DNA from: Promethearchaeota archaeon
GTDB taxonomy: Archaea; Asgardarchaeota; Lokiarchaeia; Sigyniarchaeales; SOKP01
DNA: 64,000 bases
Assembly (NCBI GenBank): GCA_016840165.1
Contig: JAEOSU010000076.1
Location: 86,719 to 150,718 of the forward strand
Reading direction: 5' to 3'
Below, piece after piece: positions 1-17,548 of this stretch. How positions within the stretch are numbered: the first letter of the stretch is position 1; the number at the start of each line of letters is the position of its first letter. Below the pieces are notes generated by a model that was not told where the DNA came from, did no database searches, and worked only from the letters and a program-made list of their open reading frames with translations. The translations under genes and the position numbers were made by a program.

Positions 1-169
1 TAATGTAAATCACTAATCTGTATTATTTCTACCATGCTATCAATACCATATTCATTATTTTATTTTAACCTAATGTGTTCTAATGTATATTAAATTTTAA
101 ATTATATTAAAGACTGAATATGGCTTTTTATATAATCCTAAAATTATTATTCATGGAATAAAAGTAGTT

Positions 170-331
170 TTAAAAGACGGTTTCAACATTGACATAGTTA
201 TTGATTTTTCGATTCTGTGCGATTTTATCTAAAATTAGCTTATCTCTACAATTAACACAAATTCCATTTATTTTTAACCAACACTCTTGGCCGCATTTAG
301 AACATAAAAATTTTTTATAGATAATTTTCAT
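170..331 (-). CDS. small zinc-ribbon protein, 53 aa (below ORF-track size cutoff)
   Basis: Hand translation of minus strand: MKIIYKKFLCSKCGQECWLKINGICVNCRDKLILDKIAQNRKINNYVNVETVF-stop. It has two CxxC pairs. No family recognised. Confidence 0.3.
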   Translation of the reverse strand: MKIIYKKFLCSKCGQECWLKINGICVNCRDKLILDKIAQNRKINNYVNVETVF

Positions 332-504
332 ACATATCTCTCATTTCTCTTATTAATTAAAGTATTTATTCGAAATTTTTTAAGCAATTTCGCCATATTA
401 TATAAAAACTATAGAGATATATATAGGTGATTCGAGCGGATTTTGGAGGAATATAATCAGTTTATTAGAATAAATAAATTAACTATATATCTCGTGTTTA
501 ATTT

Positions 505-3500: not shown

Positions 3501-3531
3501 TTAACTCTAGTTGTGTATTTAATTGTTCCAA
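505..3531 (-). CDS. alaS: alanyl-tRNA synthetase, archaeal type
   Basis: 1008 aa. N-terminal CEHCGTYFWT zinc motif, editing-domain motifs HHTATHIVN and CGGTHL, C-terminal DHHA1-like GKGGG region. Confidence 0.93.
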   Translation of the reverse strand: MEQLNTQLELMIKLPLNEELKDLKDLQSDKKIKKAFKEIASKNPDKYFPTQELRKLGYMRKQCEHCGTYFWTQLKERTVCGDPVCSGGFQIIEKNPAKVKLSYIGVWEKIVEILEPRGYVPINRYPCVARWNPTSEFTIASISAFQPYVITGEVEPPAKKLIIPQFCLRFNDIENVGLTGAHLCGFTMIGQHFFGSPEEWDQGQLFKDIHDFIHIGVGLPKEEITIHEDSWAGGGSFGCSLEFFSRGIELFNQVYTMYEQTSEGPKELSLKVLDMGMGQERVAWFSQGTPNIYEATFPYVISKLREITQIKLDLELYNDFSKYSAYLNYDEVENMDVAWQKVADKLNFQVSDLKSKILPMTALYSIAEHTRTLLFAINDGKLPSNMGGGYNLRVIFRRAISFIDHFQWDIDLAQVCRWHAEELHGLFPELSEHLGEIQEILEVEKEKYYENKKKAGKILEKRIKDGDISVETLIELYDSRGISPDLVKETAKKLGISIKIPENFYNLVVEKHEMKEKEQEITKEVELDLKNVPETKALYYYDYTITSNKAKVLKIIDNNAILDQTVAYPTSGGQLHDIGNIDDQPFQNVYKQGNHIVHVLDESPQFNEGDEVTVEVDKSWRYQLSQHHTATHIVNAAAREILGDHINQAGAKKTLKNSHLDITHYAQIPADELKQIEDISNKIVEKGIDLNLSFIPRSEAEKKYGMRIYQGGAVPGKMIRIVEIPGIDVEACGGTHLNNTAETGKIKITKSRKIQDGIIRLTFTAGEATKRYEEKQEKILKHLEEKFGVNREFVVGRINELINKWKKLNKALEQLKFGKVKNSDLQLTSKEKFTGDILSELAIVLKTKKEDKIPKENIPFRIEKFFSEWEEAKKKLKELQNIFSKEYIDNIINNAEKFSSFNLILKHFDNISQKDLNTLGKNIMKYSEDIIAIFISTIKNGIILLGMMGKQPSNKLNLNMGSFIKEFSERFNGKGGGSIDYGQALIKDCKNKGSELLHMIREDLEKLI

Positions 3532-3706
3532 TAATTAGAAAAATTTATTATCTCCTAAAATTTTTCGCATTATATTTGATACAAGTTTAAACTTCATGTA
3601 TAACTTTGATTAAAATTGATTTTTTCCATGAGAACAATAGGTTTAAATAAAATAAAAGTAGATTAGTATTATTAGTTAATCCATAATCAAAAAGGAGTGA
3701 TATTAA

Positions 3707-4072
3707 ATGACTTTCCCATATTACGATCCATTTGGAGCTCTTGGAGCAATTCTCGGGATCCTTATTGTAGTTATTATTGCTTCATGTGTAATTCAAATAG
3801 CAATTGCAGTTTGGGTCTATAATGATGCTAAAAAGAGAAATATGGACCCAACAATGTGGCTTGCAATCACTTTATTAGCAGGGTGTATAGGTTGTATTAT
3901 TTATTTAGTAGTAAGAGATCCTATTGCTACGGAAACTACCCCTATGGCTAAAGAACCGTATGATAATAAAGCTGAACTAGCACAATTAGAAAAAGGTACA
4001 TTCTGTAGCAATTGTGGTAGTGAGATACCAGCCGGAGCTAAATTTTGTCCTTCTTGCGGTAATCCACGATAA
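3707..4072 (+). CDS. two-TM membrane protein with C-terminal zinc ribbon
   Basis: Two hydrophobic helices flank VYNDAKKRNMDP. C-terminal CSNCG-x9-CPSCG. AGGAGTGAT Shine-Dalgarno motif just upstream of the ATG. Confidence 0.6.
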   Translation: MTFPYYDPFGALGAILGILIVVIIASCVIQIAIAVWVYNDAKKRNMDPTMWLAITLLAGCIGCIIYLVVRDPIATETTPMAKEPYDNKAELAQLEKGTFCSNCGSEIPAGAKFCPSCGNPR

Positions 4073-4074
4073 TT

Positions 4075-4533
4075 TCATAAATCTTCCAAGTCTAATGATT
4101 GAAAACGAGAATATCCTTGCTTAACCAAATCATAATCTAAATATTCTATTTTATTTGGTATTATTTTCAAAATAAGTTTTCTTTTACCCCGTACTATTTT
4201 CTGAGCTTTTTCAAATTCTTCATCTCGTTCTCTCAGAAAGATAAGATTATCTACGCCTTCAGTGGTAATCTGCATCCCTTGAATTTTTCCAGAATCTAAA
4301 GGAGAATAGATGCCAATACTAACAATAGGATTTTGTTCAATATTAGTAACTTTTCTTCCAGGGGCAAGTCCTACATATATATTATAGTTTTCATGGGAAT
4401 TTTCCATGTAAAAATCCATCGGAGTAGCACGGGGAATATTATTTAAACATGTACATAAGACTAGCACTTTTCTTTTATTTAGAAATGCTCTAATTTCTTC
4501 TTTTAATAGATTATCGGGCATTTTTTTGTTCAA
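4075..4533 (-). CDS. pyridoxamine 5'-phosphate oxidase-like FMN-binding split-barrel protein
   Basis: 152 aa. The N-terminal pattern (LVLCTC..IPRATPMDFY) resembles the PNPOx-like family. Assignment by eye only. Confidence 0.5.
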   Translation of the reverse strand: MNKKMPDNLLKEEIRAFLNKRKVLVLCTCLNNIPRATPMDFYMENSHENYNIYVGLAPGRKVTNIEQNPIVSIGIYSPLDSGKIQGMQITTEGVDNLIFLRERDEEFEKAQKIVRGKRKLILKIIPNKIEYLDYDLVKQGYSRFQSLDLEDL

Positions 4534-4613
4534 AACAAATCACCTATTAATTAGTAATTCCCATCATTAATAGGGATTATGTTTATGTATCCTGTTCTTT
4601 TAAAAGAAGATAA

Positions 4614-5750
4614 TTAAAGTAATTTACTATCTGGAAATCCAGTATTGTCTACTGCAGCACGCACATACGGAGAGATTGGTCCTCTTCCCAATGCCATAAT
4701 TCTTATTTTTGCACCAAGAGAAGGATTTAATGCAGTTCCAAATTTTAATGAAGCTTCCTTCGGAATTTCATTAGATATAGTAGAAATTATTTTATCCATC
4801 TTTGATAATGATAATTTATGATCCCCGGAAACGGATACAATACATTTATCTATTTTATTAGGATCAGGTTCTAATAGAGGATTATTCAAGGCGAGGTGCG
4901 CTTTATTGATTAAGTCTTTCTCGTCACCTAATGATTCTGTTATACCGATGAGTCCACTAGGGTATGCACCGTTCTTTTCAAGTACCTTTCTCACATCAGC
5001 ATAATCAATATTTATTAAGCCACAATTATTGATTAAATTTAAAATTTCTTTTATGCTTCTGATTAAGACTTCATCCATTATTTTAAATCCAGATAAAACT
5101 GGCAGTTTTTCATTAAATCTCAATAAATTATCATTCGGAACAGTTATAAGGGTGTCAGTATTTTTCACGAGTCCCTTTAATCCTCTTTGGGCTCGTGATC
5201 TCCTCTCACTACCTTCTGAAGAAAAGGGAATCGAACAAAATGTAACTACTGTTGCATTATTTTTTTTTGCTTCTCTTGCAATAATCGGAGCTGCTCCAGT
5301 TCCAGTCCCTCCACCCAATCCGTACGTTAAAAATATGACATCCGCATTCAAAGCTTCGGCTAGTCTTTCTACATCCTCCTCTGCCGCTGATGCTCCGATT
5401 TCTGGATCATTACCTGAGCCCAATCCATTACATATTTCCTTCCCAATTAATATTTTATTAGTAGCATTGGAATAATAAAGGTCGTGAGCATCAGTATTGA
5501 TATTAAGAGTCTCCACGCAGTCCGTTTTGAATTCTTGCATTCTCGAAACTGTATTATTACCCGCTCCTCCAATTCCAACAACTATAGATTTAATTTTTAG
5601 GACTTCCAATAAATCGGATAGATATTTATCGCTATCTAAATTTGCATTTTGATTATCTATTTTATTTTTGCGAGCAATTTCATTAAATCTTGATCGTATT
5701 GATAGTCGTGATTTTACTACTTCCTTTAGATCAAACTCATCGTTCGACAT
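4614..5750 (-). CDS. ftsZ: cell division GTPase FtsZ
   Basis: GIGGAGNN, NTDAHDL, tubulin signature GGGTGTGAAP, T7-loop NIDYADV. Confidence 0.92.
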   Translation of the reverse strand: MSNDEFDLKEVVKSRLSIRSRFNEIARKNKIDNQNANLDSDKYLSDLLEVLKIKSIVVGIGGAGNNTVSRMQEFKTDCVETLNINTDAHDLYYSNATNKILIGKEICNGLGSGNDPEIGASAAEEDVERLAEALNADVIFLTYGLGGGTGTGAAPIIAREAKKNNATVVTFCSIPFSSEGSERRSRAQRGLKGLVKNTDTLITVPNDNLLRFNEKLPVLSGFKIMDEVLIRSIKEILNLINNCGLINIDYADVRKVLEKNGAYPSGLIGITESLGDEKDLINKAHLALNNPLLEPDPNKIDKCIVSVSGDHKLSLSKMDKIISTISNEIPKEASLKFGTALNPSLGAKIRIMALGRGPISPYVRAAVDNTGFPDSKLL

Positions 5751-5946
5751 TCACAACATCCGTTTTAAAAACTAATTTGTTTTATAATATGAGTATTATA
5801 TCCATATAATATAGCGTAGTAATATGCATGTAATATCATCTATATTTAGGTTAAAGAAATTACTTAATTTGTGCGAAGAAAAGTAAATAGATAAAAGTAC
5901 TAAAATTTATAAGAATAGATTTTCATGTTAAATATGTTAGGGGTTA

Positions 5947-6189
5947 TTGGTAATGGAAATTGATATTAATGAAAAGAACAATGATAAGGCTTCTAGTGGG
6001 TCAGATAATAATATAATCAGTGTTAGAGTTATTATTAGTTGTCCTACTGGCGATTATAAAAAAAAGTTTAGAAATCAATTTCCCCGAGATCAAATGGACC
6101 TCTTTTTGGTTTCTGCTCGAGTTTTTGATTGGATGACATGTCCTCTTTGTGGAGAACTTTTGAATTGTAATTTTGAGTTTAATATCTAA
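5947..6189 (+). CDS. hypothetical small protein
   Basis: ORF only; one CPLCG knuckle. The ATG at 5953 is the more likely start. Confidence 0.3.
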   Translation: MVMEIDINEKNNDKASSGSDNNIISVRVIISCPTGDYKKKFRNQFPRDQMDLFLVSARVFDWMTCPLCGELLNCNFEFNI

Positions 6190-6232
6190 TCTTGTTTTAA
6201 TAAAGATAATAGTATCACATTTAGAGTAGATT

Positions 6233-7549
6233 TTAAATGTCTAAATCAAGTTTGATGGACCCATACTTTCCCCCTCCGCCAGGAGTATAAATAATCTGGT
6301 CATTTCTCATAGCTTCTATTATTTCACCAATTTTTTTGTCATAGTTGTTAATTTTGTTTAAGGACAAATCAATTAAAATTTCATATTCGGGTCCTAATTG
6401 AGAGATCATCTTTTCATAAGCATTTAAAACGGTCTTACTAGTACTGCTTTTAACATTTTTAACTGAGCGAATAATATCGATTAATGGAATCGCATTGATA
6501 TAAGGAGGACGGTGATTGGGATGTTGAGCTTTATTATATGAAGAAATCGTTTCGATTCTTTCATATACTCCCAACTTAATTTTAAAGTTCTTACTAGTTT
6601 TTTCCTTACAAGCAGGGCATATCATTTTTCCTTTAGCAACGGTATTGATAAACTCTTTTCGCGCACGCTCTAAATCTTTAGAATAGTATTCAACGAATTG
6701 AGGAGTGATACGGTACTTATTAAAAATTGAGGTGGTAGATTCATTGATTTTTTTAAAAATTATTCGTCGTCGACATTTATAGCAAAACATATTGTAATAT
6801 TTACCTAGTTTTGGATGTAAACCTACATTAAGAATAATTCTTCGAGAATCTTTTCTTCGCAGAGCGGATTCAATTTCCTCGAATGAAGGATTATCAATTT
6901 CAATCCTATTAAATTCTCTTCCCAAAGAACGTGGTGATTGCGAATGAGCATCACTGTTACTGAGAAATGATACGTCTTTTAGACATTCTAAACGATCTGC
7001 TAAATCTGTGTTAGCAGAAAGTCCTAGTTCAATAAATGAGACTTTTTTTAATGCATGATGGTAGCAGTCCTCTAAATTACTATATTGATTTTGACGAAAT
7101 ATTGCTTTGAAAGGAGTAAATGCATGTGCTGGACCAATGATACCCCCTATATCTGTAATTTCATCCACTAACTCAGCAGGAGCTAAATTTACTCTTGGTC
7201 TCCCTCCCCATTCATTAAATAAATTTTTTGAATGATTCCTTAGCTTTTTTTGTGCCTTAATTACGCTTTGAAAGTCGGGAAGGAGAACTACATGATGGAT
7301 ATTTTCCATATCTTCTATTTCAGTTTGTAAAATGAAAAAAATATCATCATATTGATAGGCACCTTCAGGAGTTTTTTGAAGGTTATGTTGCATATATTTT
7401 AACCACTCGGGTTGTAATATATCTCCGGTTCCTAATATCTGGAGGCCTTTCTGTTTGCATGTAGCAACCATAGTATCCAAATTCAGAGATTGCGACACTG
7501 CGATTGAATGAGGACTATGGATATGAAGATCTGCGTTAAAAATTTGCAT
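6233..7549 (-). CDS. endoQ: endonuclease Q (PHP-domain deaminated-base endonuclease)
   Basis: N-terminal ADLHIHSPHS PHP motif, GPAHAFTP, LSNSDAHS..LGREFN, central CxxC..CPAC zinc finger, C-terminal PGGGGKYG. This is collinear with Pyrococcus EndoQ as I recall it. Confidence 0.82.
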   Translation of the reverse strand: MQIFNADLHIHSPHSIAVSQSLNLDTMVATCKQKGLQILGTGDILQPEWLKYMQHNLQKTPEGAYQYDDIFFILQTEIEDMENIHHVVLLPDFQSVIKAQKKLRNHSKNLFNEWGGRPRVNLAPAELVDEITDIGGIIGPAHAFTPFKAIFRQNQYSNLEDCYHHALKKVSFIELGLSANTDLADRLECLKDVSFLSNSDAHSQSPRSLGREFNRIEIDNPSFEEIESALRRKDSRRIILNVGLHPKLGKYYNMFCYKCRRRIIFKKINESTTSIFNKYRITPQFVEYYSKDLERARKEFINTVAKGKMICPACKEKTSKNFKIKLGVYERIETISSYNKAQHPNHRPPYINAIPLIDIIRSVKNVKSSTSKTVLNAYEKMISQLGPEYEILIDLSLNKINNYDKKIGEIIEAMRNDQIIYTPGGGGKYGSIKLDLDI

Positions 7550-7608
7550 TATTTTAGCAAAAACTCGATTTCCTTTAAAATTTAATTATTAAAATATTAT
7601 CAGCAAAT

Positions 7609-8667
7609 TCATTGCTGATTTAGTTTAATTTCACGCCATTTTTCTGCATTCTCAATGTCATTTAATTTTTCATAGCAAGTAATGAGATCTTCAATGACAT
7701 CATGCTCAACAGGATTAAGAGAGAATAATCTTTCGTAATACTGAACAGCAGTAGCAAAATTTTCTTGTTGGTAATGAATTTTAGCGACTTTTTTCAAGGC
7801 ATTTTCGAATTCGGGAAATATTTCAAGAGCTATATTGTAATACTTCAGGGCCTGAGAATAATCTTGTAGTAGTTCGTAAGAAAATCCAAGATTTTCATAA
7901 AGAACTGGATCATCATCCTTCAGAGTAAGTGCCTTATTAAATGCTTCAATCGCCTTTATGTAATTCTCCTTAAATAAGTAGCATAATCCTATATAATTCC
8001 AGGCTCTTAGAAGGTAAGGATCCAATTCTAAAGCTTTTGAAAAAGAATTGATGGCTATATCATATTCTCTTATTTCATAGGCAATTTCTCCAAAATCAAA
8101 CCATAAAGCTGCATGATCTGGAGCTAAATTTAGTGCTTTTTTATTATAAAATATGGCTTTTGTGAAATCCTTTAAATCAAAATATATAGAAGATAAATTA
8201 TTGTATAATATTGGGTCGTCTGGATTGATTCTGATAGCTTTTTCATAGCTTCTTATTGCTTCATCATGTTGGTTAAGGTCTTTATAAAGAAGTGCCATAT
8301 TATTTAGTGCATCTATATAACTTGGATCATATTCCAAAGATTTCTTATAATATTCTAATGCATCATCATAGTCTTCTTTTTCTTCATAGGCACATGCAAT
8401 ATTATAATAAACTATTGCGTCCTCAGGATCTAATTTAAGTGCACGAAAATATGACTCAACTGCATTTTCTAACTCACCTTTCATTGAATAAGACAGCCCT
8501 AAATTGTTCCATACTTCTGAATAATAAGGATTAATGTCAAGAGCTTTTTTATAGCTAATTATTGCATTGTCAAAATCATCCTCATCATAATATGCATCTC
8601 CCAGATTAATCCAAGTGTCTAAATCATTAGGATCGTGCTTTAATGATTCTTTAAATCGTTCGATCAT
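7609..8667 (-). CDS. tetratricopeptide (TPR) repeat protein
   Basis: About ten consecutive 34-residue repeats with the pattern W.N.G..Y...G.Y..A...Y.KAL...P. Confidence 0.9.
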   Translation of the reverse strand: MIERFKESLKHDPNDLDTWINLGDAYYDEDDFDNAIISYKKALDINPYYSEVWNNLGLSYSMKGELENAVESYFRALKLDPEDAIVYYNIACAYEEKEDYDDALEYYKKSLEYDPSYIDALNNMALLYKDLNQHDEAIRSYEKAIRINPDDPILYNNLSSIYFDLKDFTKAIFYNKKALNLAPDHAALWFDFGEIAYEIREYDIAINSFSKALELDPYLLRAWNYIGLCYLFKENYIKAIEAFNKALTLKDDDPVLYENLGFSYELLQDYSQALKYYNIALEIFPEFENALKKVAKIHYQQENFATAVQYYERLFSLNPVEHDVIEDLITCYEKLNDIENAEKWREIKLNQQ

Positions 8668-8732
8668 AATTTCTTAATTTTTAAAATGCTAAATATCTAA
8701 AATCTTTTTGGAAAATATTTAATAACCGATTT

Positions 8733-9773
8733 CTAAGTTAAAATAATCATTTTATCAGTAACTTGATTCTCCAATAATATTCGAAAATATTCTTGCTCAT
8801 CTTTGTATTTGACTTTTTCTAATTTACCTTTTATGAGAACAATTTCATCTTTTACCGCTTGTTCACAAAATCTCCCACGGAAGGAACACACTTCATTGAT
8901 TCTGTCCAGAGAAATTTGCTGTTTATTGGTTAGGGAAGATATTATCTTTAATGGCTCTATTCTATAGCTACACGGTGTAAAAATTGAATCTGTTGAATCT
9001 GTAATTTGTGCTTTAATATGAATCCTTCCCAAATTCTTAAAATTATAATCATAATAATTACCCTTCCAATCTTTTGGGCTTTTAATATATCGTATAAAAA
9101 AATCTATTTCCTTAAATTTCCCTTGATGCTGTTTTCTCATTTCAGTTTGTAAAAATGTTGTAAAAGGAATATCAGAGCCTCCCACACGCCAAATATAGTG
9201 ATTTTTGTACTCTTCCATCTTATACTTACGACATCCATTTGGTATATTAAAGATCTGCTTTAGAGATTTTTGAAAATTTAGACTATTTTTTGTTCCATAA
9301 ATTACTAAATCAATATCAGAATCATTTTTGCTTAATCCAATCATTTGGGAGCCAGTTATGCCAATAGAGTCTTTTGAAATACCCCCCTCATCAATAAATA
9401 GTTCACATAAATCTTTTGAGATTTTTTCGATTTGAGAGAGCTTTTTATCATTATCTAATGACTGAAAATAGGTTCTAGGAGTATAAATCCGCTCAATATC
9501 TTCATTCTTTACACCTTGTAATTCCATATCACGTTCTTTGGAGAAGAAAAGATATTGTGGATAGGTCGTTTTCAATAAAGAATATCTTTTTTCTAAATCA
9601 TAAATCTTATTGTAAGCTATACCATTCTTTACTCTATCTCCATTATTATCTGGAAAAAATCTAATAAAACATATTTTTCTATCATTTGGATGACGTAATC
9701 CTTTAACGTCAAAAAATAGATGGGTCTTTTTAGTTTCTACATAATCGCCCTCGATCCCTACAGGAATTATCAT
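8733..9773 (-). CDS. Pol-beta superfamily nucleotidyltransferase with C-terminal beta-rich domain
   Basis: GITGSQMIGLSKNDSDIDLVIYG matches the GS-x(n)-DxD NTase motif. Substrate unknown. Confidence 0.6.
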   Translation of the reverse strand: MIIPVGIEGDYVETKKTHLFFDVKGLRHPNDRKICFIRFFPDNNGDRVKNGIAYNKIYDLEKRYSLLKTTYPQYLFFSKERDMELQGVKNEDIERIYTPRTYFQSLDNDKKLSQIEKISKDLCELFIDEGGISKDSIGITGSQMIGLSKNDSDIDLVIYGTKNSLNFQKSLKQIFNIPNGCRKYKMEEYKNHYIWRVGGSDIPFTTFLQTEMRKQHQGKFKEIDFFIRYIKSPKDWKGNYYDYNFKNLGRIHIKAQITDSTDSIFTPCSYRIEPLKIISSLTNKQQISLDRINEVCSFRGRFCEQAVKDEIVLIKGKLEKVKYKDEQEYFRILLENQVTDKMIILT

Positions 9774-9790
9774 GGAAAATCTGACCGAGA

Positions 9791-10894
9791 TTAATATTTT
9801 GAAGGTTTTTTTGATTTTATTTTATATTTTGGTATTTCTTCGATTTTTCGTAATTGATTCTCAAAATCGCGTTTTTCTCTTAAAAATCGTTCTTTATCTC
9901 TTTCTAATTTACCTCTCTCTTTTTTAATTGTATTTTTTTCACTTTCAATGGTAATTTTTTCCTTTTCAATTTTAGCATAGTGATTCTTTAAATTTTTTAG
10001 TTTTCTTTCTAAATCTTGAATATTTTGCTCTAATGAACGATATGTTCTTTCAGCTTTCGGAACTTTCTTATTTAATTCTTTCAGTTTTGCTTCTTCCTCT
10101 TTTCTAGATTTTTCTAGATTTCTTACCTCTCTATTAACATTATCTCTGAACTCTTCTAAATTAATCTTTTTCTTTTCAATATCACGAGCTTTTAGGTTAA
10201 TGTCTTTTTTCTTATACTTAATTTTATCTTTATATTCTTTTAGACGTCTCTTCTCATCTTCAATACGATTCCGTTCATCTGTGAGTTCTCGTTTCATATC
10301 ATTAATATCATTATTAAGCATATCCTTCTCACTCTTTAATTGTTTGATCTCTTTTCTTAAGTCCATTAACTTGTCTTCGTGTTTTTCAATAGTACTCTCT
10401 AAAGCATTTTCCCTTCGTTCCATACCCGGTATTTTTGATTTAATCTCTTTAATCCGATCTTCTGTTTTAGCCTTTTCCTTCTGTAAATTGATTTTTTCAT
10501 TATCTAAGTCATCTTTAATAGCATTTAACTTATCTTGATAACGTTTTAAATCATTACTTTTTTTATCTAATTCCTTTTCTTTAATTTGGAGTGTATTTTT
10601 ATGTTGTTTTATATCATTTCTCATTGTTTCTATTTCATTTTTTAAATTATCGCGTTCCTTTAAGAGATTTCGAACTTCTAATTCCTTTTGTTTTCTTTTC
10701 TTCTCAAGATCATCAATATCATCGCTATAATCTTCAATCTTCTTTAAAACTTTTTCCCATTCAATTTTTTCTTTAACTAATTTAGCTTGCTCATCTTTTA
10801 TTTTTTTGAGTAATTTTTGATTTGTAATATTATCTATTTCATTTTGGGGTGTTTTTTCTCGAATTTGATATTTAGGAATAGGTTTATCGTTCAT
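9791..10894 (-). CDS. long coiled-coil protein (K/E-rich)
   Basis: 367 aa that are almost entirely charged heptad-like sequence. No enzymatic motif. Confidence 0.65.
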   Translation of the reverse strand: MNDKPIPKYQIREKTPQNEIDNITNQKLLKKIKDEQAKLVKEKIEWEKVLKKIEDYSDDIDDLEKKRKQKELEVRNLLKERDNLKNEIETMRNDIKQHKNTLQIKEKELDKKSNDLKRYQDKLNAIKDDLDNEKINLQKEKAKTEDRIKEIKSKIPGMERRENALESTIEKHEDKLMDLRKEIKQLKSEKDMLNNDINDMKRELTDERNRIEDEKRRLKEYKDKIKYKKKDINLKARDIEKKKINLEEFRDNVNREVRNLEKSRKEEEAKLKELNKKVPKAERTYRSLEQNIQDLERKLKNLKNHYAKIEKEKITIESEKNTIKKERGKLERDKERFLREKRDFENQLRKIEEIPKYKIKSKKPSKY

Positions 10895-11067: not shown

Positions 11068-11478
11068 ATGAATTTTGAAGATGAGGAGGAAGAATTCGAT
11101 GAAGAATTCGATGAAGAATTTGATGAAGATCTGGACGAAGATTTGGATGAAGAGAGAGATTTTGAATTAAAAAAACCAACTCCAGAAGTTCTTGCAACTA
11201 AAACTCCAAAAGGTACCATTAGCTCGGAAGCAAAAAAGATTTCCGTATATCTAATGTCAACAATAGGGCCGGGGGAAAAGAAACAAAAATTATTAATATA
11301 TACTGGATATCAGATTAAGGATATCAAGGAAACAGTGGCTAATATATTTGGTTTAGACCCCTCTGATTTTCATTTATCTACAGGAGGAGTCACAATGGAG
11401 GAGGGATTAACGCTAAATGATTATAATGTTAATGATGGAGATGATATTTTGTTAATTCCGGCTAGCACTGCTGGCTAA
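11068..11478 (+). CDS. ubiquitin-like beta-grasp protein Ubl1, acidic N-terminal extension, ends ...STAG-stop
   Basis: The C-terminal ~80 aa align with Ubl2 (13316-13660); the last 19 residues DYNVNDGDDILLIPASTAG are identical. Terminal Gly is followed directly by TAA. GGTG SD upstream. Confidence 0.8.
   Translation: MNFEDEEEEFDEEFDEEFDEDLDEDLDEERDFELKKPTPEVLATKTPKGTISSEAKKISVYLMSTIGPGEKKQKLLIYTGYQIKDIKETVANIFGLDPSDFHLSTGGVTMEEGLTLNDYNVNDGDDILLIPASTAG
11089..11160 (+). repeat. six tandem 12-nt coding repeats (GAAGAnnTnGAn) encoding (EEFD)3(EDLD)2EERD
   Basis: Read directly: gaagaattcgat x2, gaagaatttgat, gaagatctggac, gaagatttggat, gaagagagagat. Confidence 0.85.
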
Positions 11479-11523: not shown

Positions 11524-12306
11524 CTATTTTTTATTTCTTGGAATTAAAGCAATTTCATCATCATCATCAATATTATACTCCCTTATAAGGGAATTTTCAT
11601 GTAATAATATTCCGCCAGAGGAGAGTAAAAAATCATCGAGATTATATCCAAAAAATACTGCTATTCTTTCTTTAAGATCTCTAATGAAATCTGATGATTC
11701 GATTATTAAAATTTTAGTTTTCTCTCCTGGTTCAACTAAGGACCTAACATAAACTCGTATTCTGTCTTGCATCCCTATTTTATTTTTTGGGGGATAATAA
11801 ATAATCTTTTTATTATTCTTAGCTTCCAACATAGATTCAATTAGGACTTTCCTCTCTTCAGCATCATAATATAATAATTCTCTGAGGAAAAATATCTTAT
11901 CCATTTTAGATAGATCTAATATTTCTATCTTCTCTAATTCTTCTGGAATAAATAATGAAAAAATAAACTCATGAAGTTTTGGTATTTCTTCATATGAATC
12001 ATCTGAATCAGCATAATCATCAATTAGAGGCATTGCTTCGAAATAATCATTTAAAAAAGCACTAGAAATTCCTTTATGTGGTTTTCTATTCAAAGGAATC
12101 TTCTTCTTTAAAATTAAATTATCGGGTTCTTTTTTAGATTCTATGATTGTATAGAGAGTAACACTAGGTAAAACAGCAACACTACTTATAATTAGGATTG
12201 AATTTAGAAGGATATGATCTATATTAAAGAAAATAAAGAGAAGATAGATTAAAATAAAGAATATATAGAGAATGATTGTACCAAATAATAGATGCTTTAG
12301 TTTCAT
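11524..12306 (-). CDS. membrane protein (2 N-terminal TM helices) with C-terminal ubiquitin-like domain lacking a terminal Gly
   Basis: C-terminal RVYVRSLVEPGEKTKILIIESSDFIRDLKERIAVFFGYNLDDFLLSSGGILLHENSLIREYNIDDDDEIALIPRNKK aligns residue-for-residue with the Ubl1/Ubl2 beta-grasp region. Confidence 0.75.
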   Translation of the reverse strand: MKLKHLLFGTIILYIFFILIYLLFIFFNIDHILLNSILIISSVAVLPSVTLYTIIESKKEPDNLILKKKIPLNRKPHKGISSAFLNDYFEAMPLIDDYADSDDSYEEIPKLHEFIFSLFIPEELEKIEILDLSKMDKIFFLRELLYYDAEERKVLIESMLEAKNNKKIIYYPPKNKIGMQDRIRVYVRSLVEPGEKTKILIIESSDFIRDLKERIAVFFGYNLDDFLLSSGGILLHENSLIREYNIDDDDEIALIPRNKK

Positions 12307-12391: not shown

Positions 12392-12865
12392 TTATTCCTC
12401 ATTGATTAATTTTCTAACCTCAAAATATTTGTCTTCATTTAAGCAAAATAATACTATTCTATTTTGTCTTCTAATGGTTATCAGTTGTAATTTTTGTAAA
12501 ATCTTAAAATACTTTTTTATAGAATTATAATTTCTTTTTAGCCCATTTGCAATTTCGGTGATTTTAAATTCTTTTAAAGAATTTTTCTGTATGAAACTTA
12601 TTATTTCTTTGACGATACTTTGTTTTAAATAGAAATGTAATTCATCAAACTCAGGATTTAAATCAAATTTGAAAAATACTCGTTGATTTTCAAATTTTTT
12701 AGATCTTACAAATTGAAATTTCTCTAAACAAGATAAATGCCATAATACTTGATTACTTCCAATGTTTATTGCTTTCATAATCTCATTAATATTTGATGGT
12801 GTTTGTTTAATTAAATTAAAGATTTCATTTCTTACTGGATGTTCTATGATGTTATTCTTCATCAA
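12392..12865 (-). CDS. winged-helix (ArsR-like) transcription regulator with two wH modules
   Basis: HPVRNEIFNLI..INEIMKAINIGSNQVLWHLSCLEKFQFV is ArsR/SmtB-like. A second wH-like segment is ITEIANGLKRNYNSIKKYFKILQKLQLI. Confidence 0.65.
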   Translation of the reverse strand: MMKNNIIEHPVRNEIFNLIKQTPSNINEIMKAINIGSNQVLWHLSCLEKFQFVRSKKFENQRVFFKFDLNPEFDELHFYLKQSIVKEIISFIQKNSLKEFKITEIANGLKRNYNSIKKYFKILQKLQLITIRRQNRIVLFCLNEDKYFEVRKLINEE

Positions 12866-12866
12866 T

Positions 12867-13067
12867 TTAGTCCCAGGAATAAGGATTTTTTTTTTTAATA
12901 AGCTTCTTTATGATTTTTTCGATGCTATTTTTATTTATATTTGGGTTTAACTTTACCCTATTACTAATGAATAAGACGATATCTTCAATTGAAAAGAATG
13001 GTTTCTTTTTTAGATATTCTTTAATTAAGTCAAAAACAATATCTTCGGCATAATTGGGGGATTTCAT
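12867..13067 (-). CDS. small hypothetical protein (possible wH fragment)
   Basis: 66-aa ORF directly upstream of the wHTH gene, in a different frame. Confidence 0.35.
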   Translation of the reverse strand: MKSPNYAEDIVFDLIKEYLKKKPFFSIEDIVLFISNRVKLNPNINKNSIEKIIKKLIKKKNPYSWD

Positions 13068-13315
13068 TAGTGTATACTTCTAATATGTTAGATGAAATGA
13101 ATTTATTAATGATTTCTTTTATCTAAAATGTTATCTTTCAGTTCATATTAATTACTAACCATTTATTCAATTTATAAGTATATTTTCTTAGATTAATAAT
13201 GGTATTTATGTCTTTATTCAAGAATTTTCAAAATCATTCCAATTGGTTTTATAATATCATTTTAGCATGTTCTTAGTAAGTTTAAAAATAAACTTTCAAA
13301 AAATAAAAAAAAGAA

Positions 13316-13660
13316 GTGAAAAAAATGAGTTTTGATAATGATTTTGATGAGGAATTGGAACCATTAAAGTCTAAAACGCCTACAAGTAAAACACCTTCAG
13401 CAGGAAAGAAACTGACTCTATATTTTATGTCAACTATCGGTCCTGGTGAAAAGAAAGAAAAGTTAACCGTAAATGATGCTAATCAAGTCAGTGATATTAA
13501 AGAAACCTTAGGAAATTTATACGGTCTTGACCCTGATGAATTTCATTTATCATCTGGTGGAGTTACAATGGATGAAAGTAATCAATTAAAAGATTATAAC
13601 GTAAATGATGGAGACGACATTCTTTTAATTCCTGCGAGTACGGCGGGTAGACTTATATAA
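13316..13660 (+). CDS. ubiquitin-like beta-grasp protein Ubl2, pro-form ending ...STAG-RLI
   Basis: Paralog of Ubl1. A three-residue extension follows the Ala-Gly. The ATG at 13325, preceded by GAAGTGA, is the likelier start. Confidence 0.85.
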   Translation: MKKMSFDNDFDEELEPLKSKTPTSKTPSAGKKLTLYFMSTIGPGEKKEKLTVNDANQVSDIKETLGNLYGLDPDEFHLSSGGVTMDESNQLKDYNVNDGDDILLIPASTAGRLI

Positions 13661-13727: not shown

Positions 13728-14960
13728 GTGATAGGATTGGAGAAAAATTCAGATTTTTTTGGTAAAGAACTGTCAGTGGAGGAACGAGACTTATATGACC
13801 GCCAATTTCGCCTTGAAGGTTGGTCACAAAAGGTAGTAAAAAATTCGAGAGTCCTAATAGCAGGTGTAGGAGGTTTAGGTTGTGAAACTGCTAAAAATTT
13901 AGCTATGTTAGGTGTGGGTCATATCGATCTTGTTGATTTAGATATAATTGAACATTCTAATTTAAACCGACAAATACTTTTTACTGGTGCTCAAATAGGA
14001 GAATCCAAAGCGATTGTAGCTGCTAGAAAATTGAGGGAAGTAAATCCAAATATAACTATAAAAGGGTATTCTACCTCTTTAGAACGATTAAATCCTGAAA
14101 TTTATCAAGCCGTTGATATTGTGGTTGGTGGTCTTGATTCGATGATTGCTCGTTTAAACTTAAATGCGCAGTGTATAAGATTTAGAAAACCTTTAGTTGA
14201 TGGGGGCGTATCTGGTTATCATGGGCATATCTATACCGTGTTTCCTTATAAAAATGCCTGCTATGAGTGTAACCCATTACCTATTGGCGAAAGTGATGAA
14301 ATGGCAGCTTGTACTGTAGTTGGAATTCCCCGGAAAAGAATTCACTGTGTTTTTAAAGGGGATATGGCTTTTAGAGAAAAATTTGATAGAGATCCAAATC
14401 CAAAAGATATGAATGATATAAAATATATTCAAAAAGCGGCAAATGAATTAGTAAATAAACATAATTTCTTACCCGAATACACTGAAGATGATATTGTAAA
14501 AATTATTGATAGACATGATCCAGGATTAATTACAGTTAATGCCGTTATTTCTGCTTTACAGTCTCATGAGACTATAAAGATTATTCATTGGAAAAAAGGG
14601 CATAAAGGATTAGGAGCGCCCATACAGGATTATGTTATCTTTAATGGTATTACCATGAAATTATATCATATTGAAAAAAAAAGAAACCCAGAATGTTCTC
14701 AATGTGGAAGAAATGCTCGACGTGTTATTATAAAAATGAAAGCACAGTCACCTTGCATGAATATTATAAAAATTTTAAATCATCATGGGTATAACTTAGA
14801 GGAAAATTTTGAACCCATTATTACACTATTGGATTTCAATGATATACAAGTTATTGATTTAGAAAAGAATGCTAGAGAAAATGATTTACGTAATTTAGAA
14901 TTTTTAATTGTAGCTGGGTTTGTTGGTGGAGAAATTTATGTAACACTAAAATTAAAATGA
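13728..14960 (+). CDS. ubiquitin-activating E1-like enzyme (ThiF/UBA family)
   Basis: GVGGLGCE nucleotide loop and NLNRQ. Two CxxC pairs (CYEC, CSQC). MAACTVVGIPRKRIHC resembles the eukaryotic UBA3-type catalytic-Cys segment (Cys codon 14310-14312). C-terminal ~70 aa is a possible ubiquitin-fold domain. The TTG at 13737 after AAGGTGAT may be the true start. Confidence 0.9.
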   Translation: MIGLEKNSDFFGKELSVEERDLYDRQFRLEGWSQKVVKNSRVLIAGVGGLGCETAKNLAMLGVGHIDLVDLDIIEHSNLNRQILFTGAQIGESKAIVAARKLREVNPNITIKGYSTSLERLNPEIYQAVDIVVGGLDSMIARLNLNAQCIRFRKPLVDGGVSGYHGHIYTVFPYKNACYECNPLPIGESDEMAACTVVGIPRKRIHCVFKGDMAFREKFDRDPNPKDMNDIKYIQKAANELVNKHNFLPEYTEDDIVKIIDRHDPGLITVNAVISALQSHETIKIIHWKKGHKGLGAPIQDYVIFNGITMKLYHIEKKRNPECSQCGRNARRVIIKMKAQSPCMNIIKILNHHGYNLEENFEPIITLLDFNDIQVIDLEKNARENDLRNLEFLIVAGFVGGEIYVTLKLK

Positions 14961-15046: not shown

Positions 15047-15574
15047 TTGAGTTTAAGAAGTAGTCGTATTTCTCGAGATTTTGCGGGTTTAAAAAAGATG
15101 CTTAAGAATGGAACCATGGTTCAATTAAAACCATTTAATCCAAAAAAAAAAAGTATTGATCATTTAGCTATTACTATCAGAGGTCCCAAAGGAACAGCTT
15201 ATGCAGGGGGTCTTTTTAAATTAGAAATGAAATTCCCTGCTCAATATCCTAAGCAGCCTCCATTTGTGAGACTCCATACACCAATTTGGCATCCAAATTT
15301 TTGGCCTAAACCAAGTGAATATAAAGGACAAAGAAATATCTGTTTAGCATTAGTTGATCCTTCTTTAGTTGGTAAAAAAGGAGGTTGGAGTCCTTCGAAA
15401 ACAGCAGTCACTATAGTGCAAGCAATAATTGCTATGTTAAATACACGCGGAAAATATGTTAATCCAACAGATGTATTTAATAAAAAAGCAGCAATCGAAA
15501 TGATAAAGGATCAAAAATTCTTCGAGAAAAAAGTTAAAAACCTAGTAAAGAAGTATGCAAAAGAAAAGTGGTGA
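15047..15574 (+). CDS. ubiquitin-conjugating E2 (UBC fold)
   Basis: HPNF...QRNICLAL gives an HPN motif and catalytic Cys (codon 15341-15343). The N-terminal helix SRISRDFAGLKKML is UBC-like. Confidence 0.87.
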   Translation: MSLRSSRISRDFAGLKKMLKNGTMVQLKPFNPKKKSIDHLAITIRGPKGTAYAGGLFKLEMKFPAQYPKQPPFVRLHTPIWHPNFWPKPSEYKGQRNICLALVDPSLVGKKGGWSPSKTAVTIVQAIIAMLNTRGKYVNPTDVFNKKAAIEMIKDQKFFEKKVKNLVKKYAKEKW

Positions 15575-16388
15575 AAATAATATGAAAAATGATGAAATTC
15601 CTGATGATCCAATTAGAGAAGCCATTAAACAAAAAATAAAAAACAAAATCAAAAAAGAATTACTTAAAGAAATATATTCGGAATTACAATTAGAAGAAGA
15701 AATTACAAACGAGATAACCACTGAAATAATTAGTGATCCTTTATTAGAGCATTCCGAGATCAATAAAGCTAATCTTGAACCGATTCCTTCAGAGATCGTA
15801 GAAACTTCTGCTAGTAATGGTAAATTTAAAGCACCTATAGCTATAAATGTAAAATCCATTCTAAAAATTGCCAGTCACGCATTAAAATATGCTCATTCAA
15901 AAATCCCAAGAGAAGAATGGGTTGAGGTTATTGGCTTACTTGCTGGAACATTTGATAAAATTCATAACGTTTTATATATTGAAGATGTTTATCCAATGGG
16001 ACATGGTAATGCTGTGTATGCGGAAATTAAAGATTATAAAAATTATGTAAGAGCTTTTAAAGATATCAAAAAAAGTAGATTGTTTATATGTGGCTGGTAT
16101 CACTCTCATCCATCCTATGGATGCTTTATGTCTAGAGAAGATTTAGGTACCCAATCGCGGTATCAAACATTATGGGATAAAGCAATAGCACTTGTAATTG
16201 ATCCTTATCAGATAAATGGAAAATCATTGGGTTTTGAAATTTATCGTGCGAATTTTAAAAAACGAGAGTGGTTTTCTGTACCTTTTGAGATTAATGGAAA
16301 TTTAGATGTGGGAATGTTACCTGAAATTTTGGATTTTATGAACCCAATTATAGAGGGGAAGGCTGCTTATTTAGAATATGATGAATAA
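15555..16388 (+). CDS. JAB1/MPN/Mov34 (JAMM) metalloisopeptidase, Rpn11-like, with ~95-aa N-terminal extension
   Basis: EVIGLLAG plus GWYHSHPSYGCFMSREDL give E...HxHx7Sx2D. An alternative start is the ATG at 15582, 8 nt after the E2 stop, with GGTGA as SD. Confidence 0.9.
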   Translation: MQKKSGENNMKNDEIPDDPIREAIKQKIKNKIKKELLKEIYSELQLEEEITNEITTEIISDPLLEHSEINKANLEPIPSEIVETSASNGKFKAPIAINVKSILKIASHALKYAHSKIPREEWVEVIGLLAGTFDKIHNVLYIEDVYPMGHGNAVYAEIKDYKNYVRAFKDIKKSRLFICGWYHSHPSYGCFMSREDLGTQSRYQTLWDKAIALVIDPYQINGKSLGFEIYRANFKKREWFSVPFEINGNLDVGMLPEILDFMNPIIEGKAAYLEYDE

Positions 16389-16408: not shown

Positions 16409-17548
16409 ATGGTAAAAAAGAAAAATTTGATAATCCTTCTTTTTGTCTTAATTGGTTTTGTCCATGGGTTGATCTCAATTTCATTAAATATTTTTCTAAC
16501 TTGGGTATTTATCGGTTTGTGGATATTTTTCATAATAAAAATTTTCGAAAACATAAAACAACATCGCGAATTTAATTCACCTTATAATACGGCATTTTTT
16601 GTTATTCTTCCTTTATTTATTGGGATCTTTTATTCTATGTGGGGCTACTATACGAATTTATTTGGTGAAAATCTCTTTATGAACTCCAATATCTATTTTA
16701 GTTTATGGAGCTTAATTTTTGGATTTCCATTTGTTTTATATGGATCTTATTCATTATATCGTTGCTTTAAAAAGTATAATGTGATCTATTTTGGGAGAAG
16801 AGCTGTAAAGGCTAAAGTGGTTGGATATCTACTATCATTCTCAATAATTTTTGGTATTATTCTTTATTGGATAATTTTTTACTCTATTATTGAGTTTTTT
16901 AATTATTTATTAATTCCTTTACATTTCTCTTTAGATTTAAATCTTTTAATCATTTTTATATTGACTATTCTAATTCTTATTTTATTTGGATTTTTAAATC
17001 CTCAAAGACGATTATCTCCTTTAACTCGAGAATATATAGCACAGCGTACTCGAAGAATTAATGCTCTCACAAGACCTAGTATTCAAAATCAGAGAGTAAA
17101 GACAACTAACCGATCAACTTCTCCCTCAACTAGAACAGTGACCCGATCAACTACTACTTCCTATAGATCCTCAAGGATCACTCCAAAATCTAAAAGCCAT
17201 GCGAGGAGAACAACAAGAACCACTGAAACTAAAAAGACAAAAACTAATCTAAAAATTCGAAATATAAATGCTTATAAGCCAAAAGCGGCATTTCTGACAG
17301 AAGAAGATTTCAAATGCATTTTCTGTTTTAATTTGCCAAAATTTCCCGAAGATAAAGGTAGAGGGATCATTTTATGCCCTAATTGTAGATATCCTTCCCA
17401 CGCAGATGAGTTTAAAGACTGGTTAAAAACTTCAAATTTATGTTCACGTTGTAGCGCACCCATTCCCTCTAGCTTTAGAAGAAATCCAAGAATTATTAGT
17501 ATAAAAAATTATATTTCTATCTATAAACAAATTTTAAAAAAAACATAA
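16409..17548 (+). CDS. polytopic membrane protein with S/T/R-rich linker and C-terminal RING-like zinc finger (candidate E3)
   Basis: About six hydrophobic helices in the first 200 aa. The linker is RSTSPSTRTVTRSTTTSYRSSR... The C-terminus is CIFC-x16-CPNC-x4-H-x13-CSRC. Confidence 0.7.
   Translation: MVKKKNLIILLFVLIGFVHGLISISLNIFLTWVFIGLWIFFIIKIFENIKQHREFNSPYNTAFFVILPLFIGIFYSMWGYYTNLFGENLFMNSNIYFSLWSLIFGFPFVLYGSYSLYRCFKKYNVIYFGRRAVKAKVVGYLLSFSIIFGIILYWIIFYSIIEFFNYLLIPLHFSLDLNLLIIFILTILILILFGFLNPQRRLSPLTREYIAQRTRRINALTRPSIQNQRVKTTNRSTSPSTRTVTRSTTTSYRSSRITPKSKSHARRTTRTTETKKTKTNLKIRNINAYKPKAAFLTEEDFKCIFCFNLPKFPEDKGRGIILCPNCRYPSHADEFKDWLKTSNLCSRCSAPIPSSFRRNPRIISIKNYISIYKQILKKT

Follow-up and report, generated by a model that had tools for sequence, protein, structure and literature searches.

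The ubiquitin systems of Asgard archaea are investigated as precursors of the eukaryotic system and, to our knowledge, their descriptions have so far comprised a modifier, E1, E2, RING protein and deubiquitinase. In eukaryotes, ubiquitin-like (UBL) domains also act at membranes: Herp (HERPUD1) and yeast Usa1 are UBL-domain membrane-hairpin adaptors of the membrane RING ligase Hrd1 in endoplasmic reticulum (ER)-associated degradation (ERAD), and the membrane-anchored ubiquitin-fold proteins (MUBs) of plants and animals tether E2s to the plasma membrane. Here, a membrane UBL-domain protein, TM-Ubl, is described from the ubiquitin cluster of a Lokiarchaeal genome (Promethearchaeota archaeon, assembly GCA_016840165.1), within a window of 64,000 nucleotides that spans positions 86,719 to 150,718 of contig JAEOSU010000076.1. 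The new finding is that an archaeal ubiquitin locus encodes such a protein and that it is joined to a domain not described before (domain X).

The ubiquitin operon of Caldiarchaeum subterraneum encodes Ub, E1, E2, a small RING protein and Rpn11 (PMC5654768, PMC6043591) and, to the extent that the abstracts and titles of these papers describe it, is comparable in kind: a compact, eukaryote-like ubiquitylation cluster in an archaeon. A propeptide-bearing modifier is encoded in both, its removal by JAMM being demonstrated for Caldiarchaeum and deduced for the Lokiarchaeal cluster, whereas the Lokiarchaeal modifiers differ in ending Ala-Gly and in carrying long acidic N-terminal extensions. The same abstracts and titles make no mention of a membrane-anchored UBL, a winged helix-turn-helix (wHTH) gene or a membrane RING-like gene. 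[quoted passage not shown] Full-text literature searching, which does not span all literature, found no description of TM-Ubl and nothing to contradict the statement of the initial annotation that it knew of no membrane-tethered example described in an archaeal ubiquitin locus. Some NCBI records name TM-Ubl orthologues 'ubiquitin-like protein'; the match to UBLs had therefore already been made automatically.

The C-terminal part of TM-Ubl is a ubiquitin-fold domain related to the two free modifiers of the cluster, Ubl1 and Ubl2. Residues 182-256 align without gaps with Ubl1 (40% identity, E=4e-20) and Ubl2 (36% identity, E=6e-19), and the motifs first read as shared between the three (PGEK, D.KE, F.LS.GG and YN.DD.D.I.LIP) are all present. 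The Pfam ubiquitin profile PF00240 matches residues 187-255 with 31.7 bits (cutoff 25.4) over profile positions 3-68 of 72. In an AlphaFold2 (AF2) model built on an alignment of 30 orthologues, the domain is predicted to follow a beta-beta-alpha-beta-beta-(short helix)-beta order, with strands at residues 182-189, 196-203, 226-230, 233-235 and 250-256 and a helix at 208-219 (predicted local distance difference test, pLDDT, 77-89). Foldseek superposes this predicted model on PDB ubiquitins with TM scores of 0.85-0.93, root-mean-square deviations of 1.2-2.2 A and ~28% identity, pointing to the beta-grasp fold whose absence had been named beforehand as grounds for refutation. BLASTP returned no alignment of the domain with human ubiquitin; residues were instead mapped by MAFFT, in which L190, L228 and I255, invariant in the 30 TM-Ubl orthologues, fall on the L8, I44, V70 patch of ubiquitin. 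We infer that the domain arose by duplication of a free modifier.

The end of the domain is that of neither modifier. Free Ubl1 and Ubl2 of more than 70 genomes end ..LIPAS[TIV]AG, either terminally or with a tail of at most 8 aa; the ..AS[TIV]AG end is found in 76 Ubl1 and in 69 of 71 Ubl2 sequences, the remaining two Ubl2 open reading frames (ORFs) being cut short. TM-Ubl ends LIPRNKK, with no terminal glycine as initially read, and the same lack extends across the family, whose members end ..LIP(S/R/K)(R/N/H)K.. with tails such as RNKK, SRKK(EKK) and similar: glycine after beta-5 occurs in 0 of 30 aligned orthologues, and the tails of the divergent cluster representatives P0125 and P0128 are likewise without it. 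In the MAFFT alignment, Ubl1 is co-linear with ubiquitin to its last residue, with Ala-Gly where ubiquitin has Gly-Gly, and TM-Ubl stops at RNKK. The hallmark of a type-1 UBL, a C-terminal glycine that is exposed or precedes a removable propeptide, is therefore lacking. By established ubiquitin chemistry, loss of the C-terminal Ala-Gly carboxylate of the free modifiers predicts that E1 cannot activate the UBL domain of TM-Ubl and that JAMM cannot release or process it. This predicted non-conjugatability is a conserved property of the family and no accident of one genome. A precursor that is cleaved into a conjugatable UBL was also considered and is ruled out by the absence of glycine after beta-5 in every aligned orthologue.

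The free modifiers have features of their own. In the window and in loci L006-L085, both end Ala-Gly rather than Gly-Gly, and acidic N-terminal extensions that are unusual among ubiquitin-type modifiers (~55 aa in Ubl1, ~30 aa in Ubl2) precede the beta-grasp; in some copies a short propeptide, at most 8 aa long, follows at the C-terminus.

At its other end, TM-Ubl carries the two transmembrane (TM) helices initially assigned to it, on which hydropathy and alignment agree. The hydrophobic segments (residues ~6-28 and 32-56) are separated by a polar turn of 3-4 residues, AF2 places helices in this region at 2-26 and 32-44, and basic residues flank the hairpin on either side (MKLKH... and ...ESKKEP..KKK). 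Since both flanks are basic, the positive-inside rule predicts an N-in/C-in topology with both ends of the protein in the cytoplasm. Hairpin residues Y14, Y21, S42, T50 and Y52 are invariant in the aligned orthologues; together with the low ratio of nonsynonymous to synonymous substitution rates (dN/dS) in the hairpin (0.24), these polar and aromatic residues suggest specific contacts inside the membrane. The order of TM hairpin, X and UBL domain is constant across the family, with the UBL as an embedded, non-cleavable module. By this architecture, TM-Ubl is an integral UBL-domain protein (type-2 UBL), and it is in this capacity, and in the ubiquitin-fold superfamily only, that it holds membership.

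Conservation extends to the whole protein. Among 367 database homologues, most of the best 120 match TM-Ubl over its full 260 residues, with identities of 51-99%. When each species was represented by one genome, scanning located 80 TM-Ubl loci, full-length orthologues being present in at least 80 species-level Lokiarchaeal genomes, and all named database relatives come from Lokiarchaeal or 'Promethearchaeota' metagenome-assembled genomes. Over 923 orthologue pairs (Nei-Gojobori method), dN/dS is 0.22 overall, and invariant alignment columns are found in all three domains. Sequence evolution thus marks TM-Ubl as a real gene under purifying selection in every domain, strongest in the UBL domain (0.15) and then in X (residues 85-170; 0.19). 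The latter value bears on the region of residues ~85-170, initially described as an acidic linker: this is a conserved, folded helical domain, while the true linker (residues 58-84) has a dN/dS of 0.40. RNA-derived contigs exist for the orthologue of locus L012, covering codons ~55-172 at 91-100% identity; their sources are three metatranscriptomes from one study plus an RNA-seq run from a second (4 runs, 2 studies), and their depth is low over TM-Ubl and much higher over Ubl2. The RNA runs listed include none with sequence of the window itself or of L030. The initial proposal was to fall if the gene were absent from all related ubiquitin loci and unexpressed; it is instead kept in the orthologous loci of ~80 species, one of them with RNA contigs.

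Domain X is about as conserved as the UBL domain within TM-Ubl. It gave nothing significant in Pfam searches (22 members scanned) or in PDB profile searches with two alignments, and Foldseek with the model of residues 78-260 returned only ubiquitin matches, hence no structural neighbour of X, among the best 50 matches listed. When 1.84 billion cluster representatives were searched exhaustively with a profile of the middle region of TM-Ubl, 64 matched X at E<1e-3. A word-indexed profile search with a diverse X alignment gave 2 matches and was uninformative, and a metagenome scan for X loci with a narrower alignment gave a single locus. An alignment of 29 sequences has no gaps across the ~85-aa domain. 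X-bearing proteins other than TM-Ubl are up to 2081 aa long and hold X at their extreme C-terminus. Their N-terminal parts contain right-handed beta-helix/NosD, Laminin_G_3, TSP3, FG-GAP, Big_7 and beta-propeller domains, and the order along the chain is extracellular-type domains, a poly-Ile TM helix, a basic stop-transfer stretch, a K/E-rich linker and X. In nearly every full-length multi-domain member, the TM helix lies 30-230 residues ahead of X, with signal-like N-terminal segments earlier. Given its position after the TM helix, X is read as a cytoplasmic, membrane-proximal tail module of Lokiarchaeal type-I surface proteins. This sharing of X with surface-protein tails is a finding beyond those of the initial annotation.

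All X members with a named source are Lokiarchaeota, and a UBL follows X in the TM-hairpin family only. Three proteins contain sequence beyond X, in the form of a second X-like repeat; P0166 and P0175 also extend past X, in P0166 with a zinc finger. In about half of the X surface proteins, an eight-ligand zinc finger (CxxH-x10-CxxC-x4-CxxC-x11-CxxC) directly precedes X, as seen among P0135-P0184 (e.g. P0135 residues 394-433) and loci L086-L091. The best PDB profile matches of this finger are the RING domains of Mdm2, MdmX and RBBP6, at a sub-threshold E of ~0.02, and its bearers could be transmembrane RING-like ligases. Comparison of this finger with that of the multi-pass membrane protein encoded in the TM-Ubl locus (TM-RING) did not establish homology (hhalign probability 32%).

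The TM-Ubl gene lies between the two Ubl genes, as first noted, being convergent with Ubl1 and 3' of a wHTH gene (Table 1). For synteny, all retrieved loci were searched by tblastn with the proteins of the window. In practically every locus, the wHTH gene is followed by TM-Ubl, convergent with Ubl1, and then by a coiled-coil gene; of 81 loci, 76 have Ubl1 downstream of TM-Ubl, and the wHTH gene is upstream in 79-82 of 85. A divergent Ubl2-E1-E2-JAB-TM-RING operon lies upstream in nearly all loci with enough flank, the membrane RING-like gene coming last; at L084, there is no Ubl2 or E1 in the ~1.9 kb upstream of the wHTH gene. The membrane RING-like protein of the window belongs to no Pfam or NCBIfam family.

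Table 1. Features of the Lokiarchaeal ubiquitin cluster, numbered from the first position of the window.
Feature	Position	Strand	Basis or remark
TM-Ubl gene, 260 aa	11524..12306	-	ORF; membrane hairpin, linker, X domain and predicted non-conjugatable ubiquitin-fold domain
Two-helix transmembrane hairpin, residues ~6-56	12139..12291	-	Hydropathy, alignment, AF2, dN/dS
Domain X, residues ~85-170, five predicted helices	11797..12054	-	AF2 pLDDT 71-86; profile search; architectures; gapless alignment
Ubiquitin-fold (beta-grasp) domain, residues 181-256	11539..11766	-	Ubl1/Ubl2 alignment, Pfam, AF2, Foldseek, MAFFT, dN/dS 0.15
Basic tail RNKK replacing modifier tail ASTAG	11527..11538	-	Alignments; no glycine
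Ubl1 free modifier, ends ...LIPASTAG	11068..11478	+	ORF, alignment, Pfam; convergent with TM-Ubl
Tandem winged-helix (ArsR/TrmB/SdpR-like) regulator	12392..13067	-	Directly upstream of TM-Ubl, same strand
Conserved non-coding block TATTATAAAAC..TTGGAATGATTTTGAA(GTT)	13227..13258	.	Divergent wHTH/Ubl2 intergenic region
Ubl2 free modifier, 3-aa propeptide (...ASTAG-RLI)	13316..13660	+	ORF, alignment, Pfam
E1-like ThiF-family activating enzyme	13728..14960	+	Pfam ThiF, E=1e-59
E2 ubiquitin-conjugating enzyme	15047..15574	+	Pfam UQ_con, E=1e-25
JAB/MPN (Rpn11-like) isopeptidase	15555..16388	+	Pfam JAB, E=2e-13
Multi-pass membrane protein, C-terminal CxxC..CxxC..H..CxxC zinc finger, putative membrane RING-like E3	16409..17548	+	ORF, tblastn synteny

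Locus and fold support an adaptor role, the L8/I44/V70-type patch being kept and the reactive terminus lost. The reading favoured here, with moderate confidence, is that TM-Ubl serves as a membrane-tethered, non-covalent ubiquitin mimic or adaptor that docks ubiquitin-system proteins and is joined to partners of X and to the wHTH. The anchored UBL would act as a permanent, non-covalent 'ubiquitin' on the inner membrane face and bind proteins that recognize the globular body of the local modifier, candidates being the E2 backside, E1, the JAMM protease and ubiquitin receptors of the ubiquitin E2 variant (UEV)/ESCRT-I type. Such binding would concentrate ubiquitin-system proteins beside the membrane-embedded RING-like ligase. 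X and the conserved hairpin would provide a second contact, for which the wHTH, X-bearing surface-protein tails and the TM-RING protein are candidates. TM-Ubl would thereby connect the ubiquitin machinery with membrane proteins, by analogy with Herp/Usa1 and Hrd1 or with plant MUBs and E2s. The initial annotation, which suggested E1, E2, the JAMM protein, the proteasome or a Cdc48-type machine as possible partners, is partly supported: it is correct in fold, non-conjugatability, conservation and eukaryotic analogy, and incomplete in architecture and genomic context.

The eukaryotic comparison, already drawn in the initial annotation, holds as a fair analogy of architecture, no homology being found outside the UBL fold. 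TM-Ubl and Herp/Usa1 would share a non-conjugatable UBL with a two-segment membrane hairpin whose ends are both cytoplasmic (the topology of TM-Ubl being predicted), and in each case there is a multi-pass membrane protein with a cytoplasmic RING-type finger, with which Herp/Usa1 work and TM-Ubl is encoded. However, the UBL is N-terminal in the eukaryotic adaptors and C-terminal in TM-Ubl; Pfam and PDB searches, including those with residues 78-176, gave no sequence similarity beyond the UBL fold; and Herp/Usa1 have no equivalent of X or of the wHTH partner, nor do these archaea possess an ER. Like MUBs, TM-Ubl would present a ubiquitin fold without a conjugatable C-terminus at the cytoplasmic membrane face, but MUBs are prenylated at a C-terminal CaaX, whereas the tail of TM-Ubl (RNKK, SRKK) is without cysteine in every aligned orthologue and the protein is anchored by N-terminal TM helices. 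A conserved, membrane-fixed and non-conjugatable UBL next to a membrane RING-like protein would mean that archaea already have the principle behind ERAD adaptors, MUBs and UBL-UBA shuttles, namely the use of ubiquitin for docking at membranes.

Several observations weigh against docking of the ubiquitin enzymes as the role of TM-Ubl. At L075, on a 1-Mb gap-free contig (JBHLNF010000001.1), the enzyme operon is absent upstream of the wHTH gene while wHTH-TM-Ubl-Ubl1 is intact; on this evidence, the constant neighbours of TM-Ubl are the regulator gene and Ubl1, not the enzymes. The recurring pairing of wHTH and X genes described below would fit a regulatory role at least as well as docking. Binding to E1 and JAMM may be weak, since the tail that contributes to recognition of ubiquitin by both is replaced. 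The inter-domain geometry of the TM-Ubl models is uncertain (predicted TM score 0.38-0.49), and evidence for transcription of the orthologue is modest, since its RNA contigs are low in depth and strandless and DNA carry-over is possible.

The wHTH is the tightest genomic partner of TM-Ubl, which opens a regulatory or signalling reading that was absent from the initial annotation. Its product contains two to three ArsR/TrmB/SdpR-like winged helices and resembles DNA-binding regulators of the ArsR/SmtB/SdpR type. In the window, an additional base in a run of 11 A (12886-12896) splits the gene into ORFs of 66 and 157 aa; orthologous genes are unbroken, with 220-224 aa. Four independent metagenome runs yield contigs that all have one base fewer at this position, restoring the frame; the extra base is therefore probably a homopolymer error or a strain variant. 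The conserved block between the wHTH and Ubl2 genes, also given as TATTATAAAAC..TTGGAATGATTTTGAAGTT, contains 9-mers that recur in 49-60 of 71 orthologous intergenic regions, among genomes whose proteins are only ~50% identical, and is a candidate TATA box and operator (regulator-binding site) for the divergent promoters. Paralogues of the wHTH (35-48% identity, E 1e-29 to 1e-58) occur on the same strand at five of six other X-domain loci. They are directly upstream of the X gene in L086, L091 and L089 and directly downstream in L088, while in L087 the paralogue lies 4 kb upstream, within one string of genes; near the X gene of L090, none was found. This usual pairing of X surface-protein genes with a wHTH paralogue is likewise a new finding. 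About 1 Mb of other Lokiarchaeal sequence, including the 64-kb window, holds no further copy of the wHTH family besides the neighbour of TM-Ubl, though the estimate is rough, as most of this background is from the same syntenic neighbourhood.

Cassettes of a wHTH gene with one or more genes for membrane proteins ending in X span 4145-11066 of L086, 3201-9476 of L087, 1663-6465 of L089, 464-7019 of L091 and 3193-5306 of L088. Three X-domain genes lie inside 6 kb in L086.

On this evidence, the main rival of the adaptor reading, and one compatible with it, is that TM-Ubl is a regulatory sensor, a possibility that is credible yet doubtful. X would hold the ArsR/SdpR-like wHTH at the membrane, the UBL would report the state of the ubiquitin machinery by being bound, modified or degraded, and TM-Ubl would thereby control how strongly the divergent Ubl2-E1-E2-JAMM-RING operon is transcribed; for paralogous cassettes, the input would be the surface ectodomain. 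The recurrence of wHTH paralogues at or near unrelated X genes and their absence from ~1 Mb of other Lokiarchaeal sequence argue for such a sensor, as do the wHTH-TM-Ubl pair that stays intact where the enzyme operon sits elsewhere, the likeness of the wHTH to DNA-binding regulators and the strong conservation of the non-coding block in the divergent promoter region. Against this, the wHTH does not reach the family cutoffs of the SdpR and ArsR models, the other X loci are a small sample (n=6) and adjacency may merely reflect a regulator controlling its neighbour. A model for the X and wHTH cassette may be the SdpI-SdpR pair of Bacillus subtilis, in which a membrane protein sequesters an ArsR-type autorepressor. 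A membrane protein is there too encoded beside an ArsR/SdpR-like winged-helix regulator, but the match of the wHTH to SdpR is sub-threshold (44 bits against a cutoff of 100) and TM-Ubl is unrelated to SdpI.

A less probable alternative is that the UBL of TM-Ubl is a built-in sorting or acceptor tag: a non-removable UBL read by Asgard UEV/ESCRT, or extended into chains on conserved lysines, would mark membrane patches or associated X-tailed surface proteins for sorting or turnover, in the manner of eukaryotic linear ubiquitin fusions. The hydrophobic patch is retained, lysines aligned to ubiquitin K11 and K27 are kept in all three paralogues, K198 and K212 are invariant in the TM-Ubl family, and binding of ubiquitin by Asgard UEV is reported in the two preprints (bioRxiv 10.1101/2021.08.17.456605, 10.1101/2023.07.25.550441). 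However, the locus has no ESCRT gene, and one of the two preprints reports ubiquitin and ESCRT regions to be separate in Lokiarchaeota; any modification or sorting of TM-Ubl is hypothetical, and this alternative is judged improbable. Still less credence, and very little in all, is given to an anchored decoy or inhibitor that would fill the modifier sites of E1, E2 or JAMM unreactively and so damp conjugation or deconjugation near the membrane. Its fold and patch are those of the substrates, the reactive C-terminus is missing and the gene is a separate transcription unit of the same locus, but a decoy needs neither a conserved X nor a conserved hairpin, and, with its tail altered, the UBL probably binds the E1 adenylation site less tightly. 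That TM-Ubl is non-functional, as a decaying Ubl1/Ubl2 duplicate fused by chance to a hydrophobic ORF or as a mis-called ORF, has nothing in its favour beyond the many spurious ORFs of AT-rich genomes (G+C of the window ~30%) and has practically no probability: a pseudogene or spurious ORF is ruled out by full-length orthologues at ~50% identity in at least 80 species genomes, invariant columns in all three domains and dN/dS of 0.15-0.24 in each, and RNA contigs exist as well.

Beyond the adaptor reading, a wider proposal may be put forward, which as a whole is unlikely. X would be the shared cytoplasmic docking module of a ubiquitin-coupled transmembrane signalling system of Lokiarchaea, comprising receptors with a RING-like finger and X, dedicated wHTH regulators, and TM-Ubl as a member whose ectodomain was swapped for ubiquitin and which lies next to a membrane RING ligase in the ubiquitin operon; TM-Ubl would be a prokaryotic counterpart, and possibly a forerunner, of the Herp/Usa1-Hrd1 adaptors. 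If so, TM-Ubl would connect the turnover of surface proteins, or signalling, with ubiquitylation in archaeal relatives of eukaryotes. Through X, TM-Ubl is tied to a sizeable group of Lokiarchaeal surface proteins, so far unstudied, with zinc-finger tails and paired regulators, and this set, with the operator-like DNA block, bears on the coupling of the cell surface to ubiquitylation and transcription.

Some features of individual genes and loci complete the description. Read from its first ATG, the JAB ORF shares 20 bases with the end of the E2 gene (15555-15574); since orthologous JAB genes (268-272 aa) start after E2, translation probably begins at the second Met (MKNDE...). A tandem duplicate of Ubl2 lies upstream of the wHTH gene at L069 (3992-4953). 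At L075 (positions 1-6000), a 706-aa protein of unknown function is encoded upstream, in place of the Ubl2-E1-E2-JAB-RING operon. The sequence labelled as a complete chromosome at L049 (CP070805.1), considered as an exception without nearby ubiquitin genes, was rejected as an artefact, since scaffold gaps of 100 N bound the segment; runs of 100 N recur there every 1-1.6 kb around the TM-Ubl gene, the sequence being scaffolded. On the far side of Ubl1, the neighbourhood (4614-10894) is co-linear over ~20 kb in genomes whose TM-Ubl is only ~53% identical. It contains genes for FtsZ/tubulin-like, MJ0043_C-domain and TPR-like repeat proteins (the last read from sequence) and a 346-aa protein of unknown function, as well as a 367-aa K/E-rich coiled-coil protein whose gene adjoins Ubl1.

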